Source of the DNA: Candidatus Heimdallarchaeota archaeon B3_Heim
GTDB lineage: Archaea > Asgardarchaeota > Heimdallarchaeia > Hodarchaeales > Hodarchaeaceae
Direction of reading: 5' to 3'
Assembly (NCBI GenBank): GCA_003144275.1
Contig: NJBF01000005.1
Span: 30,001 to 62,000 of the forward strand
Length of the DNA: 32,000 nucleotides
The notes under the pieces are model-generated. The model was not told where the DNA came from, did no database searches, and saw only the letters and a list, made by a program, of their open reading frames with translations. Of the stretch, positions 6,541-22,773 are shown one piece after another; position 1 is the first letter of the stretch, and each line of letters opens with the position of its first letter. Position numbers and translations under genes: made by a program.

Positions 6541-6619
6541 AAAATCTCAGTTAGAAAATTATTAAAAGATCTAATGTATTTTGATAAAATGAAACACTAA
6601 AGAATAACCCCCCTTTAAA

Positions 6620-6818
6620 GGGAACGTAGCGAAGCTAGTGGACTCGCTAGTTTCTAGCGAGACCGGACAAGTATCGCGCCGGGCTCCAGAACCCCCTGTG
6701 AACTCCACTGGGTTGACTGAAACTCATGATGAAGTTCTGGAAAAATGAGGAAACTCGGTGTCATTCTTGCATGTCGCAAGGTGAACGAAAATCGCCAGTT
6801 CAAATCTGGCCGTTCCCA
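6620..6818 (+). tRNA. trnW: tRNA-Trp(CCA) with three introns (18/19: 6639-6670; 37/38: 6690-6752; 45/46: 6761-6790)
   Basis: Acceptor GGGAACG/CGTTCCC-A, D stem GCGA/TCGC, anticodon stem CCGGG/CTCGG with CT-CCA-G, T arm GCCAG-TTCAAAT-CTGGC. Removing the three inserts gives a canonical D loop AGCTAGGTA and variable loop TGATC. The D-loop splice sites are the least certain (imperfect central helix). Confidence 0.92.
6690..6752 (+). ncRNA. Box C/D guide RNA inside the tRNA-Trp anticodon intron
   Basis: Order is C-like CTGTGA, guide CTGGGTT, D' CTGA, C' ATGATGA, guide GTTCTGGA, D-like ATGA. By the N+5 rule the guides target C39 and C34 of the host pre-tRNA, as known for euryarchaeal tRNA-Trp introns. 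Confidence 0.8.
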
Positions 6819-7156
6819 CTTCCTTTTTTAATGAGATTAAATCTCTCTCGAAAGACTTTCTAATACTTCTACCATAATGTCCAATAGAGACATTGTGCAA
6901 ATGGAGAGATATCCGAAACTGAGCAATTAATCGATTTTAATTTGTTTAAAAACGATTTGATTATTGAGGAGGTAGTTTTAGAGAAAGAAAGCCAATAATG
7001 AGAGATTCGATATTTTAAGTCTTTTTTCTAAAATCAGGAGTTTATAAAAGATGCCCCCAGATGATGGTCCAATCGGTCTTTAGGAATCCACAGGTCGAAT
7101 TACCTGGTTCCCTTCCTTTTTTTTTAGAATGAATCTACAAATAAAAAGAAATATTA

Positions 7157-8666
7157 TTAACTCGCCAATATCGATGGGGATCTCCATTGAAGGTTTTCAC
7201 TGTCGAACCATTGATATCTTAACCTTTGGGGATATAAATACCCCATAACAGGCCAAATAGTCCATTTCATTTCCTTTTCAATCCATTGTACCCATTCTGG
7301 CCACAGTCGTACGTAAAGATATAGATTTTGATCACTAGTAAACAATTGACCAAAGGGAAGCCACTGTATCATTCGTAAAAGCTGTTTGTTAGGTAGTACC
7401 GGTAGTTTAACGAAATATGTATCCAAACTCCATTCATTAAGAAGCCTATGAGACCTGAAACTAACATTCAACACCATTTTACTTTGTAGATCCCTAATTA
7501 AAGATAAATACTTTGGAGTTAGTAGGAATGAAGATTGTAGGTTTGAAAAATTAAGAGGTAAATTCTCTTGAAACCTCACAAAATAGTTTGATTAATTCCT
7601 CTGGTTGATCATGTTGTTTAAAGTTCCAAGTAGAATCAGAGGAGGGAGAGAGAAAAAACTGGGGTAAGTTATTTTTTCGCTTTTTCCTTGGATTTTTTGT
7701 TAGTAATCGCTTAGTTAATACCTTGCGTTGCGTTTTATTTAAATCTCTCCAACCTTTGTCAGGTCTATAAAGAGCTAGAGAATGATGAAGATGAGTTAAG
7801 TTAAGATTCATCATTTCATGTATGATTATCTTTCCCTGTCTATCTTTTTTTTTAAAATAAGCTTTTAGCGAATCATGACATGTAATAGGGGAAGTTAAAA
7901 GCCCGATAAATGAGTTAGAAGTTTCTCTTATATGTAACACATTGCTATTGCAAAGGAGAGTATTTGCACTGTCATGCAAATCTACTACCTCTTTGAGAGA
8001 GATATTCTCTGTTAGTTGAAAATTGATGTAAAAATGCTCTAGATCAAAAGCGTGTCTATAAAAGAAAAGAATAATTCTTATGTCAAGAAGTTTGAAGAAT
8101 GTAGAAACGTCAGGAGCAATTTTTGTCCTATCCCTATTCTTACAATAAACAGTTTTAACGTGTAGAGGATCTAATGCTAAATATCCACTGTTATTAATCT
8201 CAAAAAATAACAATTCCACATTTTGAAGCTGTTCACGTGAAAGAGGAACTTTGAATCTATTATATCTATATTGTAAGGATTCAAAAGCATCTATATCCAG
8301 TAAGGAGGTATAATTATGCACTAATTTGAAAATGGCTCTTAAATTATTAATAATATACGTGTAAAAGTCCTCAGCATGGTATTTAGCTTCCTTCAATATC
8401 AAATTGGCTTTTGTACAGAATTCCCGAGAAAAACATAGGAATGGAGTCTGTAGGTATAGATTTGTTCCTGTATTTTCTTCAATATAATCGTCGAGTCGAG
8501 TTATAAGTTTTTCACGTTGGAATTCGGCTTCTTGGTAATGCATAAGAACTGATGTAAATTTAAATAGAATTTCTTTTTCAATTTTTGTATAATTTTTTGC
8601 GTATAAAGAGATCCTACTTAGTATTGTGTGAATATTATTCCTTAGGATCTCATAGCGTCGAACCAC
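7157..8666 (-). pseudogene. Probable single hypothetical gene split by a frameshift (ORFs 7551-8666 and 7157-7579)
   Basis: Two same-strand ORFs overlap by 29 nt in different frames. The second has only a GTG inside the end of the first, and the junction is next to a T5 run on the coding strand. No function could be assigned. Confidence 0.5.
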
Positions 8667-9160
8667 TCCAGAACCTGTCTTAAAGTTATAAAAGAGATTT
8701 TTCTACCCTTATTAACGAGTTTATTCTGGATATATTTAAACTTTTCATATATTTATATAGGGCTTATAAAATATAGAGAATCGTTACTGAAATAAATATG
8801 GACATTTGAATTAAACCAGCCTCTACTACTATTCTTATTCTTAAGGATAGTATTACATTTTTATCTTGTCTCTATTAACGAAAAACAACTAAGTGAAGAA
8901 GTATATAAACCAAGAATTAGGAATTTATCCAATTCAATCTATTTGCTTCAATTTTGATCTGTGAAATGCGCCCTAGGAATTGGTGAGTACTACAGTAAAC
9001 AGATAAACATCATTAGGAAAAAGCATAAAACAGAAGAAAAGCAGTTCTAGTAGATAGAAAGGCTTCTTTGAAGGCAGAGAAGAAATTCTTGAGCTGCTAC
9101 CAACTAATAAATCTGAACACATTAGTAAATTCATAAGAACGCACTTGGAAGTGACAATTG

Positions 9161-9469
9161 ATGCAATATTTACACGCTGCACTAGTATTACACTCATCAG
9201 GAAAAGGAGTTTCTGAAAAAGGAATAACAGCAATTATTAAAGCGGCTGGTGACAAACCAGACGAAGCTAAGATTAAGGCTTTGGTTTCAACACTTGAATC
9301 ATTAGACATTGATGAAGCCATTAAAGGGGCAAGTTTCATGACAGCAGCTTCACCTGGAACCACAGGCGCAGCAGATACTGGCAAGGAAACTGTCGCTAGT
9401 ACAACAGAACCTGAAGAAGAAGAGGAAGAAGCTGGGGACGATCTCGGTTTATCTTCATTATTCGGTTGA
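9161..9469 (+). CDS. rpl12: 50S ribosomal stalk protein P1 (aP1/L12p)
   Basis: MQYLHAALVLHSSGK, DEAKIKALV..LE..DIDEAI, acidic hinge and C-terminal GLSSLFG. ATG at 9161. Confidence 0.97.
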   Translation: MQYLHAALVLHSSGKGVSEKGITAIIKAAGDKPDEAKIKALVSTLESLDIDEAIKGASFMTAASPGTTGAADTGKETVASTTEPEEEEEEAGDDLGLSSLFG

Positions 9470-9781: not shown

Positions 9782-9878
9782 GGGCCGATGGTGAAGCTGG
9801 TATCACGCCGCCTTCGCAAGGCGGAGATCGCAAAAATGCGACTGTATCCCCCGAGTTCAAATCTCGGTCGGTCCACCA
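9782..9878 (+). tRNA. trnA: tRNA-Ala(CGC) with a 21-nt variable-loop intron (45/46: 9827-9847) and encoded CCA
   Basis: Acceptor GGGCCGA/TCGGTCC with the G3:U70 Ala determinant, anticodon arm CCGCC-TT-CGC-AA-GGCGG, T arm CCGAG-TTCAAAT-CTCGG, then A-CCA. The intron has central helix GCGG/CTGT, two 3-nt bulges and a TCGCA/TGCGA hairpin. Confidence 0.94.
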
Positions 9879-9914: not shown

Positions 9915-11003
9915 ATGTCAGTTAAAGAAGAGACCCATAGAAATGAGCTATTAAATAGTGCCAAGCTGGAATTCCGCAATGCTGGGTATACTCTGAGTGA
10001 TAATGATATTAGCTCCTCCTCTTTTGACTTCATAGTGAAGAAGAAGAAAGAAATTCAGACACCTTTGATACCAAAAAAAATGATCATTCGTGTATTAGCT
10101 GAATTAGATTTGTTTAAAAGACACACATCCCAAGAACTTCAGTTAATTGCCAAATTAATTCAAGGAAAACCTTTACTAATAGCAAAATTTGCTACTGGAA
10201 AAAGAATTAAACCAGCCACACTTTATAGACGGCACAATGTTCCTGCTATTTCGTTACAAACTCTAAAATCTTTTCTTCAAGATGAATTATCCAAAAAATC
10301 TCCACAAATTACTAAACTCACAAAGAGAGGGGGTATCTTTGTTAATCTATCAACTTCACGCTTTGTTGAAAGAAGAAAACAGCTTGAGTTGGATATTAGT
10401 CTTTTAGCTGAAAAAATTGGGGTATCACGTCAATCCCTCTATAAATATGAGCGGGGTAAAAGCTCACCTAAATTAGATAGTTACGCTCGTATCTTAGAGA
10501 TCATGGGTATTGATCTTGAACAGCCGATTAACATATTTGAAAAACCTAAAAAATCTACAGATGACTTAGATTTTACAATCAAAGAACTTTGTAAACCTAA
10601 ATCACAACGGCAAAAAGAAATCACAGGTTACCTTCAAGAAAAAGAGATCCGGATTTTATGGTTAAGACAAGAACCAGTTGATGGCATCATTGTTAACGAA
10701 CAAAGAGAGATTATCGACAAGAGGGAAATAAATCCGGGAAACTCAATTGTCACAGGGGTTTCTTCAACAAACGAGGAAAAAGACCATGATCGTCTCCTCT
10801 TACTAAACAAACTCGCACGCTTCTTAGGAAAAAAGGCAATTTGGTTTGAGGATGAAGAGTCTGACAAAGAATCGAAATTTATTAAGACTACGGATTTTTT
10901 TACAATATTGACTATTTCTGATTTAGAACATATGGGAAATGAAGAACTATTAAAATCTTTGAAATTATCGGGCACTTCTCAACAAACTAAATCCAAACGT
11001 TGA
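9915..11003 (+). CDS. Archaeal HTH-type transcriptional regulator (COG1395-like, Xre/Cro HTH)
   Basis: N-terminal nuclease-like fold (SSFDFIVKK, LYRRHNVPAIS), RGGIFVNL, and central HTH LAEKIGVSRQSLYKYERG. Confidence 0.85.
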   Translation: MSVKEETHRNELLNSAKLEFRNAGYTLSDNDISSSSFDFIVKKKKEIQTPLIPKKMIIRVLAELDLFKRHTSQELQLIAKLIQGKPLLIAKFATGKRIKPATLYRRHNVPAISLQTLKSFLQDELSKKSPQITKLTKRGGIFVNLSTSRFVERRKQLELDISLLAEKIGVSRQSLYKYERGKSSPKLDSYARILEIMGIDLEQPINIFEKPKKSTDDLDFTIKELCKPKSQRQKEITGYLQEKEIRILWLRQEPVDGIIVNEQREIIDKREINPGNSIVTGVSSTNEEKDHDRLLLLNKLARFLGKKAIWFEDEESDKESKFIKTTDFFTILTISDLEHMGNEELLKSLKLSGTSQQTKSKR

Positions 11004-12047: not shown

Positions 12048-12231
12048 GCCGGGGTTTCTGTCTCTAACGAGGTTCATTCAGATCCTCAACGACCCGATAG
12101 CCAAGCGGACGGGATTATAATTAATAATGCCCTGTATTACGGCGCTGGCCTTGAGACCTCAATATTCAAAAATTCAGGTTAGATAGCCAGTGTACATTAT
12201 GTACTCGAGGGTTCAAATCCCTCCCCCGGCG
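12048..12231 (+). tRNA. trnS: tRNA-Ser(TGA) with three introns (8/9: 12056-12098; 20a/20b: 12111-12137; 37/38: 12156-12184)
   Basis: Acceptor GCCGGGG/CCCCGGC-G (G73), D stem GCC/GGC, anticodon stem CTGGC/GCCAG with CT-TGA-G, long variable arm GTACA/TGTAC, T arm GAGGG-TTCAAAT-CCCTC. Each insert has BHB geometry. Confidence 0.93.
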
Positions 12232-13424: not shown

Positions 13425-14762
13425 CTAATTAGAAAATAATTCGTGTACTATTCCCACAGCGATTGTACTTCCAGAATGCCGTAAGATTATCCGTCCTAAT
13501 TCGGCATAGTCTGTGAATTTTTCTACTACAAGCGGAGTATTAATAAGTAAATCCACTTCTACTAACTCCCCCTCGAACGCTATAGTTATCCGTCCCTCAA
13601 ATTCTCTCTGTAATTTTTTATATTTGGGACTCTTATTCAGAATTTTCGTAATTTGCTCAATCTGAGCAGTAGAATAGGACGCACCACAATGGAAGACTAC
13701 TGAAGATCCTGGAACAAATGTACCTTCTAGAATTAAAAGGCGAGAGCGAATTTTAACGCCGAATTGATATTCTGTATTTTTCGGAGCTAAAACTATTCCT
13801 TCTCCCAAAATATCTTTGGGTAAATTCCTTAATAATACTGATCCATGTTCTCCTGGATTTAGAGCTTCTTGTTTTTCATCCTCCACCCATAATTCTTTGA
13901 TTTCTGATTCTATCCCTTGGGGGAGAATTTTAACTTTTTCACCCGATTTAAGTTGTTGACTGAGTGCTTTTCCTAAGAGAAATGTCCCAAATCCATGTCT
14001 CTCAATAATATCGTAACCAACGAATCGCATTTCCATATTTTTCTCATACTTTACTCCTTTCAACGAATTTAAAGCTTCTAATAATGTATAACCGTCATAC
14101 CACTCCATTTGACGGGAGTGTTCTGATAAATTCTCCCCAGCTAATCCGCTAATGGGAATAAATGGAATACTTTCAATTTGTTGGGTCCAAGGAGATTGGA
14201 TCTCCCGAAAGAGTTGTTTTATTTTATCAACTGCCTCGTGATACCGATCTTGTCTATACTCGACTTGATCCATTTTATTGATAGCAATGATAACTTGATT
14301 GATTCCCAATACAGAGGCTAAAATAGCATGTTCTCTTGTCTGACCTCCAGGATCTTGGTAACCTCCTACTTTCAATCCTGATTTCAAATCATTGGGGACA
14401 GCACTAATTACCAAAACACAAGCGTCAGCTTGAGAAGCTCCTCGTATCATATTCTTTACAAAGTCCCGATGACCAGGTGAATCAATTAGCATAAATTTTC
14501 TTTGCTCTGTTTCAAAAGGATAGAAGGCAATATCAGAAGTAATACCTCGCTGCTTTTCCTCAGGTAGCGTATCAAGTACGTAAGCCCACTTCCATGATTC
14601 CATTTGATGTTCAATAGCCTCTTCCTCCAATTTTTCTATCGTACGAACATCAATAGCGCCGATCTGAGATAAAAGATGACCTAATGTTGTAGATTTGCCA
14701 TGATCCACATGGCCAATCCATATTAAAGATATAGTTGGCTTAGAATTAACCATAAGTATCAC
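13425..14762 (-). CDS. EF-1alpha-family translational GTPase, paralog 2 (eRF3/Hbs1-like domains II-III)
   Basis: G1 GHVDHGKST, G2 RGIT, G3 DSPGH, G4 NKMD, G5 ISG, and GQTREH. Domains II-III are divergent and lack the EF-1alpha SIEMHH/GDNIGF motifs. Start is GTG 14762 or ATG 14753. Confidence 0.9.
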   Translation of the reverse strand: MILMVNSKPTISLIWIGHVDHGKSTTLGHLLSQIGAIDVRTIEKLEEEAIEHQMESWKWAYVLDTLPEEKQRGITSDIAFYPFETEQRKFMLIDSPGHRDFVKNMIRGASQADACVLVISAVPNDLKSGLKVGGYQDPGGQTREHAILASVLGINQVIIAINKMDQVEYRQDRYHEAVDKIKQLFREIQSPWTQQIESIPFIPISGLAGENLSEHSRQMEWYDGYTLLEALNSLKGVKYEKNMEMRFVGYDIIERHGFGTFLLGKALSQQLKSGEKVKILPQGIESEIKELWVEDEKQEALNPGEHGSVLLRNLPKDILGEGIVLAPKNTEYQFGVKIRSRLLILEGTFVPGSSVVFHCGASYSTAQIEQITKILNKSPKYKKLQREFEGRITIAFEGELVEVDLLINTPLVVEKFTDYAELGRIILRHSGSTIAVGIVHELFSN

Positions 14763-14816
14763 TGCCTGAAATTAGGCTGAAAGGAAAAAAGAAAAAGAAA
14801 TTGAGAAAGAAAAAGT

Positions 14817-16346
14817 TTAGGAGGCGTATTTATTTCTTTCGACTTTTTGGACTACTCCAACAGCAACTGTTTTTCCTGAATCGCGGAGTGCAAATCGTCC
14901 AAGAGCTGGAGTTTTGGTGATTGGCTCCACCACTAAAGGTGTTAAAGGAGTCATCCAAACCATACCCCTCTCACCTTGACCCAGATTATCCTGTTCTTGA
15001 ACCGCAGTCACACGGCATGCAACTTGTGCAGTTCCACAGTGAACCACAGGAGAGTAGTTTTCATGAATTCCCCAGGCTTCGTCTTTCTTCTTAGCTTTTT
15101 TACCTAGTCCTCTGACCACGAGTACCAATGATAAAAATCCGTCCACATTTGGTTTTAAAGCTTCTGCTGGATCCGCCGGATCACTCACGACAGCACCGCG
15201 TATAATATCATTCGCACCTATATTTTTTGTTTTAATGTTGAAACCGATATTGTCTCCTGGCATTGCTTGCGGAATATCTTTGTGAAATTCTTGAATTGAC
15301 TTCACAGTAATTGGTACTGGTGCAATATCTTGTTTTGTAGGGGAAATTACCATCTCTGAATTCGGTTTTAGTACTCCAGTAGAAAGTCTTCCAGTTAGGA
15401 CTGTCCCTACGCCACTTATATTGAGTGTTTGTTGAATTGGTAATCGGATTGCTTGTTTTGCCAACGCGTCTTTACGAATGGCTGGTGATTCCAAAACATC
15501 AAGCGAATCAACGAGGGATGGTCCATCATACCATGATAAACCTTCAAAACCTGCTTTTATGTCCTCAATCTCTTTTTGTAACGATTCAATGAATTCAGGA
15601 TCTGCATTTCCAGCTTTTGCTGCAGATACATGTCCTTCTAAGTTTTTCACTGAATTTTCTTTAGAGAGAAGATTCACACCTACTAATCCACTAGTGGGAA
15701 CATATTTAATTGCTTCTAAACGGGCCTCTTTGTTCTCTATTTGTAATGCGGACATTAATTGAGTAAAGATAGTATGAATTGCAGTTTTGATTTGCTCATA
15801 TCTTTCCTTACCCCAGTCAACAACGTCCATTTTATTGATAGCTACAACAATATTTGTAACTCCAAGTGAAGTTAGGAGAAGCATATGCTCTGTTGTCATA
15901 CCTATAACGTTAGCATATTTTCCAGAAGCGGTTCCAGCGACTTTGGTTCCGTCTTCGAATTCTCCTTTTCTTGCAGATACAACTAAAATAGCGGCATCTG
16001 CTTGAGAAGCGCCGGTAATCATATTTTTTATAAAATCACTATGGCCTGGAGCATCGATTAAGTTATAGATGAATTTCTTGGTCTTAAATTCTTGGAAAGA
16101 TATGTTAATTGTGAGACCTCGTTCTCTTTCATCCATCAGAGGATCCAAAATCCAGGCGTACGACCAGCTACCCATGCCCGTAGCTTTGCTTTCTTTATAG
16201 TATTTTTCAGCAATTCGCCAAGGTTGTCGTTTCTTTTTAGGATCATGTATCTGACCTAGTAAGAACAACATGTGGCCAAGACCGGTAGATTTTCCGTGAT
16301 CAACGTGTCCTGTGACCACTAAATTCATTCTTTCGAGATCTGCCAT
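14817..16346 (-). CDS. tuf: Elongation factor 1-alpha, divergent, with insertions (paralog 1)
   Basis: GHVDHGKST, ERERGLTI, DAPGHSDFIKNMITGASQAD, NKMD, RLPIQ...GVGTVLTGR..TGVLKP, PGDNIGFN, LGRFALRDSGKTVAVG. At 509 aa it is longer than typical aEF1A because of three insertions. Confidence 0.88.
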   Translation of the reverse strand: MADLERMNLVVTGHVDHGKSTGLGHMLFLLGQIHDPKKKRQPWRIAEKYYKESKATGMGSWSYAWILDPLMDERERGLTINISFQEFKTKKFIYNLIDAPGHSDFIKNMITGASQADAAILVVSARKGEFEDGTKVAGTASGKYANVIGMTTEHMLLLTSLGVTNIVVAINKMDVVDWGKERYEQIKTAIHTIFTQLMSALQIENKEARLEAIKYVPTSGLVGVNLLSKENSVKNLEGHVSAAKAGNADPEFIESLQKEIEDIKAGFEGLSWYDGPSLVDSLDVLESPAIRKDALAKQAIRLPIQQTLNISGVGTVLTGRLSTGVLKPNSEMVISPTKQDIAPVPITVKSIQEFHKDIPQAMPGDNIGFNIKTKNIGANDIIRGAVVSDPADPAEALKPNVDGFLSLVLVVRGLGKKAKKKDEAWGIHENYSPVVHCGTAQVACRVTAVQEQDNLGQGERGMVWMTPLTPLVVEPITKTPALGRFALRDSGKTVAVGVVQKVERNKYAS

Positions 16347-22638: not shown

Positions 22639-22773
22639 GGGCCCATGGCTTAGCCTGGTTAAAGCGCTCGGCGTTCAGAAGTTTTTCTGGACGGGTGATG
22701 CTGATAACGCAACTGGTTTCCCAGGCTGCCGATAGAAACCGAGAGATCCCCGGTTCAAATCCGGGTGGGCCCA
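22639..22773 (+). tRNA. trnI: tRNA-Ile(GAT) with two introns (30/31: 22671-22699; 37/38: 22707-22737)
   Basis: Acceptor GGGCCCA/TGGGCCC-A, D arm GCTT-AGCCTGGTTA-AAGC, spliced anticodon arm CTCGG-CT-GAT-AA-CCGAG, variable loop AGATC, T arm CCCGG-TTCAAAT-CCGGG. The first intron forms a strict BHB (CGCT/GGTG). Confidence 0.94.

Follow-up and report, generated by a model that had tools for sequence, protein, structure and literature searches.

The intron of tRNA-Trp is the textbook archaeal case of a tRNA intron that carries a guide RNA; in Haloferax and Pyrococcus it directs Cm34 and Um39, acting in trans (PMC4090602, PMC7994747), and the Trp guide intron has also been found as a circle (PMC7714728). 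Archaeal tRNAs with several introns are a second known kind. As far as the accessible parts of two papers go, the Thermoproteales and Cyanidioschyzon merolae carry several bulge-helix-bulge (BHB)-type introns at non-canonical positions in a single tRNA, these introns are removed sequentially, in C. merolae by motif stability, and no intron-encoded guide is described (PMC3978253, PMC3728597). Among Asgard archaea, introns occur in 92-95% of the tRNA genes of three genomes (PMC11291895), and a census of 90 genomes found up to five introns per gene, with 2.2 introns per gene in its focal families and a D-arm bias among missed introns (10.64898/2026.10.13.758758). Of the 40 tRNA genes listed for Atabeyarchaeia-1, 14 have three introns, tRNA-Trp among them, and the tRNA-Trp of Atabeyarchaeia-2 has four (PMC11291895 Supp. 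Data 4).

Here we describe a tRNA-Trp gene (trnW) from an Asgard archaeon of the genus Hodarchaeum which, by its testable sequence features, belongs to both kinds at once, being an archaeal tRNA with several introns and the carrier of a tRNA-Trp C/D guide within one of them. It resembles the two Atabeyarchaeia tRNA-Trp genes, of 206 and 231 nt (PMC11291895), and in our own reading of the coordinates the introns of the Atabeyarchaeia-1 gene include one of 69 nt at 37/38 and, beginning 8 nt after its end, one of 31 nt at 45/46; Atabeyarchaeia, however, belong to a different Asgard class from the host. The first-pass annotation, made from the letters of the stretch, had called triple-intron tRNAs rare, a claim that does not hold within Asgard archaea, given the three and four introns of these genes and the four of two congeners of the host. 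The finding is well supported, yet ordinary among Asgard archaea. No publication was found on a Trp guide intron in Asgard archaea, nor on tRNA introns in Hodarchaeales specifically, and these are its sole unreported aspect; the main texts of PMC11291895 and 10.64898/2026.10.13.758758 leave the Trp guide unmentioned, and that of the latter, a preprint, does not mention Hodarchaeales.

A tRNA-Trp gene in four exons

The locus occupies positions 6620-6818, on the plus strand, of the window (the whole 32,000-nucleotide stretch analysed, on contig C88), in an assembly of 3.95 Mb with 36% GC, 94% completeness and 4% contamination. The ribosomal protein S15 of the host shares 90-98% identity with records under the names Ca. 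Heimdallarchaeota or Hodarchaeota, and 80% with Ca. Hodarchaeum mangrovi. The locus is very probably the working tRNA-Trp(CCA) gene of the host and contains three introns of the archaeal endonuclease type, at 18/19 (6639-6670), 37/38 (6690-6752), and 45/46 (6761-6790). Exon 1 (6620-6638) supplies tRNA positions 1-18, that is, the 5' strands of the acceptor and D stems and the D loop up to G18; exon 2 (6671-6689) supplies positions 19-37, with the CCA anticodon at 6686-6688; exon 3 (6753-6760) consists of only the 8 nt of positions 38-45; and exon 4 (6791-6818) supplies positions 46-73, comprising the T arm, the 3' strand of the acceptor stem and the discriminator A73, the CCA end being unencoded. 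Joined, the exons give 74 nt, which ARAGORN accepts as a tRNA-Trp(CCA) with a full cloverleaf and stems of 7, 4, 5, and 5 bp, and the features of a class I tRNA are present after splicing (U8, A14, G18G19, U33, the CCA anticodon, R37, and the T loop). The tRNA of about 74 nt spread over 199 nt that had been proposed from the letters alone is thus exact in its coordinates. The unspliced locus gave no tRNA with ARAGORN and none with Rfam at the gathering score, only a weak score for the 3' end alone, and we attribute this to the inserts rather than to absence of the gene. Folding of the whole precursor gave a z score of -4.4 against shuffles.

A BRE-like purine run and a TATA-like box, TATTAAAA (6560-6567), together spanning 6553-6567, lie about 55 nt 5' of the tRNA start and form a putative promoter; the TATA-like 8-mer is found at -60 to -53 in 16/16 copies with upstream sequence. 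The gene is followed by a pyrimidine/T tract (6819-6829), a candidate terminator, with similar tracts after most homologues. The leader at 6607-6625 (a C run and TTTAAA) can form a hairpin with the first tRNA bases, and most relatives do not have it.

The trnW locus is matched in 19 of 21 congeners and adjoins DUF434 and rpS15 genes, a synteny that is kept. All 17 full-length copies of the genus, host included, have three inserts in the same places, with intron 2 at 62-65 nt. Across 15 species every pair of the exon stems is kept (100%), with 15 two-sided changes, and none of 500 shuffles was as good, a control whose significance is overstated because the compared genomes are kin. This pattern of conservation fits a working trnW gene. 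An additional trnW elsewhere in the genome, named by the first-pass annotation as contrary evidence if coupled with an untranscribed locus here, was sought in the 94%-complete assembly by BLAST with the spliced sequence and the exons and by an anticodon/T-loop scan, which could miss tRNAs carrying T-arm introns; none was found, and the locus is apparently the sole tryptophan tRNA gene of the host. That it is instead a pseudogene, an integration scar or an assembly artefact, with the working trnW elsewhere, has in its favor that the assembly is incomplete, that tRNA scanners miss the locus, and that one congener (G001) has partial trnW duplicates around a 22-kb island. We regard this as extremely improbable, in view of the purifying and compensatory conservation across 17 species, the conserved promoter spacing and synteny beside the DUF434 and rpS15 genes, and the outcome of the search for another candidate.

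Other genes of the window and of the host's relatives were noted in passing. About 26 of 40 tRNA-like loci in the host genome carry inserts (that is, are longer than a compact tRNA), whereas several Heimdallarchaeia lineages are intron-poor according to the preprint (10.64898/2026.10.13.758758). Within the window lie tRNA-Ser(TGA) at 12048-12231 (plus strand; 184 nt, three apparent inserts, detected by neither ARAGORN nor Rfam), tRNA-Ala(CGC) at 9782-9875 (plus strand; a variable-loop insert), and tRNA-Ile(GAT) at 22639-22773 (plus strand; two anticodon-arm inserts). Intron-less tRNAs (Glu, Leu) in genome G000, on contigs C5 (4246-4318) and C57 (192643-192729), look bacterial by eye and are possibly contamination or transfer. 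Between trnW and an acidic ribosomal protein gene (9158-9469), two ORFs of 140 and 371 aa without a Pfam match lie on the minus strand at 7157-8666; that ribosomal protein gene is 2.3 kb from trnW here, versus about 0.3-0.9 kb in most congeners. A GC-richer patch at 7050-7115 matched the nearest relative only and was set aside. Tandem genes for EF-Tu/EF-1alpha-family GTPases (445 and 509 aa) at 13425-16346, minus strand, are convergent with rpS10 and rpS7.

Splice motifs and processing enzymes

Intron 1 (6639-6670, 32 nt) lies in the D loop and forms a hairpin at 6640-6664 with 10 of 11 pairs, within which a perfect 8-bp hairpin, CTCGCTAG-TTT-CTAGCGAG, is found at 6643-6661, just as had been noticed at the outset. 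Its fold energy is -14.6 kcal/mol, against -5.4 kcal/mol for shuffles, 0.15% of which were equally good. The proposed cuts, AG|T and AA|G, do regenerate G18G19, giving the D loop AGCTAGGTA, and the central helix (6633-6636 with 6665-6668, AGCT/GGAC) is as imperfect as the first-pass annotation had said, with two of four pairs formed. Judged by motif score alone, this register ranks third of 169; the higher-scoring registers, (+2,-2) and (+3,-3), are mere shifts within the hairpin that would keep 4-6 surplus bases in the D loop, and were rejected.

Intron 3 (6761-6790, 30 nt), in the variable loop, forms an 8-bp bulged hairpin whose fold is better than 97.75% of shuffles; its central helix (6755-6758 with 6785-6788) has three of four pairs in the host and all four in 12/17 copies, and its register is the best of 169. 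Excision restores the TGATC that had been predicted for the variable loop. The intron is 30 nt long across the 17 copies, once 32. Covariance of the intron stems in relatives, which had been suggested as a check, was found for the hairpins of introns 1 and 3 and for the 45/46 central helix. The intron 1 hairpin shows two-sided changes at 8 of 11 pairs with 89.6% of cells paired, the intron 3 hairpin is 95.8% paired with two-sided changes, and the intron 3 bases opposite tRNA positions 40 and 41 co-vary with them.

Intron 2 (6690-6752, 63 nt) sits at the canonical 37/38 site, uses the anticodon stem as its outer helix, and has a central helix, CTCC/GAGG, with three of four pairs. Higher-scoring alternative registers for this intron break the anticodon loop and were discarded. 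All three central helices of the host gene are thus imperfect (2/4, 3/4, and 3/4 for introns 1, 2, and 3), unlike those of the Thermoproteales and C. merolae genes, and none reaches the strict hBHBh' motif; the first-pass annotation had remarked on this for intron 1 alone. Introns 2 and 3 fall in the relaxed BHB class, with 3/4 pairs plus an outer helix and 3/4 pairs plus an inner helix, respectively; intron 1, with 2/4, is below the 3/4 rule for that class (10.64898/2026.10.13.758758). In nearest-neighbor folding the central helices have near-zero probability, forcing them costs 5.0-7.4 kcal/mol, and in folded intermediates the splice motifs do not form spontaneously; since the near-zero value holds also for the 37/38 intron, which is of an established type, the folding model cannot decide the matter.

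The host genome encodes two EndA paralogues, alpha and beta, and RtcB. The best match of EndA alpha is the EndA of Aeropyrum pernix (E value of 8.5e-43), an (alpha-beta)2 enzyme that is its closest solved relative (PDB 3P1Z/3AJV; PMC3241643). The catalytic Y120, H128, and K159 are aligned, and K39, in a loop of crenarchaeal type, aligns with K44 of A. pernix EndA; the crenarchaeal loop and its Lys44 permit cleavage in the D loop and of bulge-helix-loop motifs (PMC3241643). As in A. pernix, the second paralogue does not have the catalytic His. R46, by contrast, is replaced by Lys in the host alpha subunit.

The D-loop insert might alternatively stay unspliced and enlarge the D arm by one more hairpin, leaving two true introns. 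Its central helix is at 2/4 in 12 of the 17 copies, the minimum-energy fold places the intron 1 hairpin on a formed D stem, and the Asgard census allows that D-arm insertions lacking the motif may sometimes be non-introns, none having been shown to be spliced (10.64898/2026.10.13.758758). On the other hand, the insert is 32 nt long in every copy but one, which has 29 nt, and the two 3-nt bulge positions keep their register. The central helix has all four pairs in two species and three of four in three others, five orthologues that share the register and in which the inner helix covaries. The D loop is unbroken in outgroups, and the host EndA has a loop of the kind that permits such cleavage. 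G18 and G19 pair with the T loop in tRNA, and retention of the insert would separate one from the other. We consider retention very unlikely, and treat the 18/19 insert as an intron in what follows. An EndA that did cut at a site with two central pairs would accept less pairing than the usual definition of the relaxed motif requires.

A predicted C/D guide and a possible order of processing

Intron 2 is also a predicted box C/D guide RNA. Its boxes C, D', C', and D occur in that order with guides of about 12 nt. The box C-like GTGAACT (6698-6704) matches RUGA in its first four positions and is off consensus at positions 5-7; RTGAACT is found there in all aligned copies. The D' guide CACTGGGTT (6706-6714), followed by box D' CTGA (6717-6720), pairs with 6752-6760 in a 9-bp duplex that takes in the last intron base and positions 38-45, with 100% of cells paired and, in two species, a compensatory replacement of the G-C pair at tRNA position 41 by A-U; the fifth base 5' of box D' (6712) is opposite C39 (6754). 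Box C' ATGATGA (6726-6732) precedes the D guide GTTCTGGA (6734-6741) and box D ATGA (6745-6748). This second guide pairs over 8 bp with 6685-6692, spanning the 5' splice site (U33-G37 and the first three intron bases), and the fifth base 5' of box D (6740) is opposite C34 (6686). Boxes C and D are off consensus, with the G-A/A-G positions kept in all copies. None of 5,000 shuffles gave both duplexes, no Rfam family matched intron 2, and the genome encodes fibrillarin, Nop5, and L7Ae-family genes.

The arrangement is that of the Haloferax volcanii/Pyrococcus (sR50) guide, namely, a 37/38 intron of tRNA-Trp(CCA) with the four boxes and with guide fifth bases that face positions 34 and 39, and the host intron is predicted to yield Cm34 and Cm39. 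It differs in length (63 nt, versus 103 nt in Haloferax), in box C (GTGAACT here) and in target 39, which is C rather than U; furthermore, the host tRNA has two additional non-canonical introns, one of which starts where the D' duplex ends. The first-pass annotation had placed the targets of the guide next to two splice sites, and this is borne out, as the D duplex spans the 5' site and the D' duplex takes in the last intron base at the 3' site and stops at the 45/46 boundary; C34 and N39, the targets of a Trp guide, are necessarily beside the 37/38 splice sites. In a covariance-model search, Trp introns bearing a homologous guide turned up in six further families of Asgard archaea, three of which have at least three inserts.

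By analogy with the biochemistry of Haloferax and Aeropyrum, a single precursor would be made from the TATA promoter, each relaxed bulge-helix-bulge or bulge-helix-loop motif would be cut by EndA, an enzyme of two subunits with the crenarchaeal specificity loop on alpha, and RtcB would ligate the exons and circularize the introns. The 63-nt intron would load L7Ae, Nop5, and fibrillarin and then methylate C34 and C39, most likely in trans, on precursors that still hold the 37/38 intron. Because its duplex spans U33-G37 plus three intron bases, the D guide favors the unspliced precursor. Since box D shares bases with the splice helix of the intron that carries it, a given molecule could either assemble the guide complex or be spliced, but not both at once.

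Three structures draw on exon 3, namely, the anticodon stem, the duplex with the D' guide, and the central helix at 45/46; positions 39-45 cannot serve all three at the same time, which hints at sequential steps. Folding of intermediates gives a weak signal as to their order. The 45/46 motif was the cheapest to form, and intron 1 was indifferent to the other introns. With intron 1 retained, the 45/46 motif cost a mean of 2.2 kcal/mol in the presence of intron 2 versus 3.5 kcal/mol in its absence (5.0 versus 7.1 kcal/mol in the host), and the gap of about 1.3 kcal/mol fell to 0.4 kcal/mol once intron 1 was out. The 45/46 intron may thus be removed early and the 18/19 intron independently, with methylation possibly before removal of the 37/38 intron.

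A stronger proposal makes the 45/46 intron a timer, which holds positions 40-45 off the anticodon stem such that methylation precedes splicing in an obligatory, selected order. The three exclusive pairings of positions 39-45, a D' duplex that ends exactly at G45, and the lower cost of the 45/46 motif while intron 2 is present and intron 1 retained all agree with it, and ordered intron removal is documented in C. merolae (PMC3728597). However, the energy gap is small, at 0.4 kcal/mol after intron 1 is removed, intron 3 adds no pair to the D' duplex, the guide intron occurs in many Asgard Trp genes that have no intron at 45/46 (L063, L065, L064 group), and the Haloferax tRNA-Trp has the guide intron alone. 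We therefore consider a timer unlikely. Equally doubtful is the full combination of an obligatory, selected assembly line, in which exon 38-45 is passed from the 45/46 helix to the D' duplex and on to the anticodon stem with a flanking intron gating methylation of the anticodon arm, and an EndA that cuts the D-loop site with two central pairs. The looser sequence, with early removal of the 45/46 intron and methylation ahead of 37/38 splicing, is the one that we would favor.

Intron gain and significance

Outgroup genes point to the order in which the introns may have been gained. In a genome of the same order and another family (G022), the D stem of trnW is the same and its D loop, AGCCAGGTA, is uninterrupted, while the guide intron measures 65 nt and a 45/46 intron of 47 nt has a perfect central helix, and in a distant Asgard gene (L063) the AGCCAGGTA D loop and the TGATC variable loop are both unbroken; the proposed junctions are therefore those of intron-less orthologues. 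The 18/19 insert is absent from both same-order outgroups. Two congeners carry a fourth intron in the T loop, at 59/60 (L016:1681-1717 in G004; L017:1470-1510, minus strand, in G005, Ca. Hodarchaeum mangrovi), with a perfect TTCA/TGAA central helix in each and unrelated sequences; the tRNA-Trp of H. mangrovi is identical to that of the same-genus genome G005. The guide intron would accordingly be old, the 45/46 intron is common to the host's genus and one same-order outgroup, the 18/19 intron would have been gained on the stem of the genus or family, and the 59/60 intron would have been added in two congeners. In other families of the class, pattern and model searches identified no convincing tRNA-Trp; the matches lay outside tRNA genes and are uninformative on those families.

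The other same-order outgroup, G023 (80% complete), has a different layout at L023:1024-1311. Its tRNA-Trp (1024-1140) has a 46-nt intron without boxes, and a C/D guide homologue stands apart from it, about 55 nt downstream (1196-1303), within an hBHBh' motif of its own, which is perfect, with 4/4 central pairs and inner and outer helices. The guides still fit C34 and C39 of this tRNA-Trp. The cassette is from one genome here, and a search of 400 genomes and of metagenome contigs gave no further copy of the free-standing guide. With two introns in G022, three in the genus, four in two congeners, and a guide outside the tRNA in G023, these genes offer a compact example of stepwise intron gain.

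Partial duplicates of trnW were observed on contig C16 of G001 (10631-10757, 32754-32968, and 33075-33140; L026, L020, L027, L054, and L055). Ahead of the full three-intron gene there is a detached 5' half, whose D-loop intron differs, and 22 kb beyond the gene a 3' half starts within the guide intron, with a 45/46 intron that also differs. It is this 3' half that the usual downstream genes follow, so a 22-kb island seems to have been inserted at trnW. The island contains TnpB-like, helicase, and ABC transporter genes, and no tyrosine integrase was found in it. Such an insertion is a possible route for swapping introns.

Knowledge of the intron and guide classes is unchanged by this gene. Its description recovers an essential gene that escapes both ARAGORN and Rfam. 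The precursor would also be a handy three-site substrate for gauging the looseness of Asgard EndA, since no tRNA intron of the Asgard census has yet been shown experimentally to be spliced (10.64898/2026.10.13.758758). For Hodarchaeales, proposed as the order closest to eukaryotes in the abstract of 10.1101/2024.07.04.601786, it means that at least one genus is rich in introns and has retained the guide in its Trp intron.
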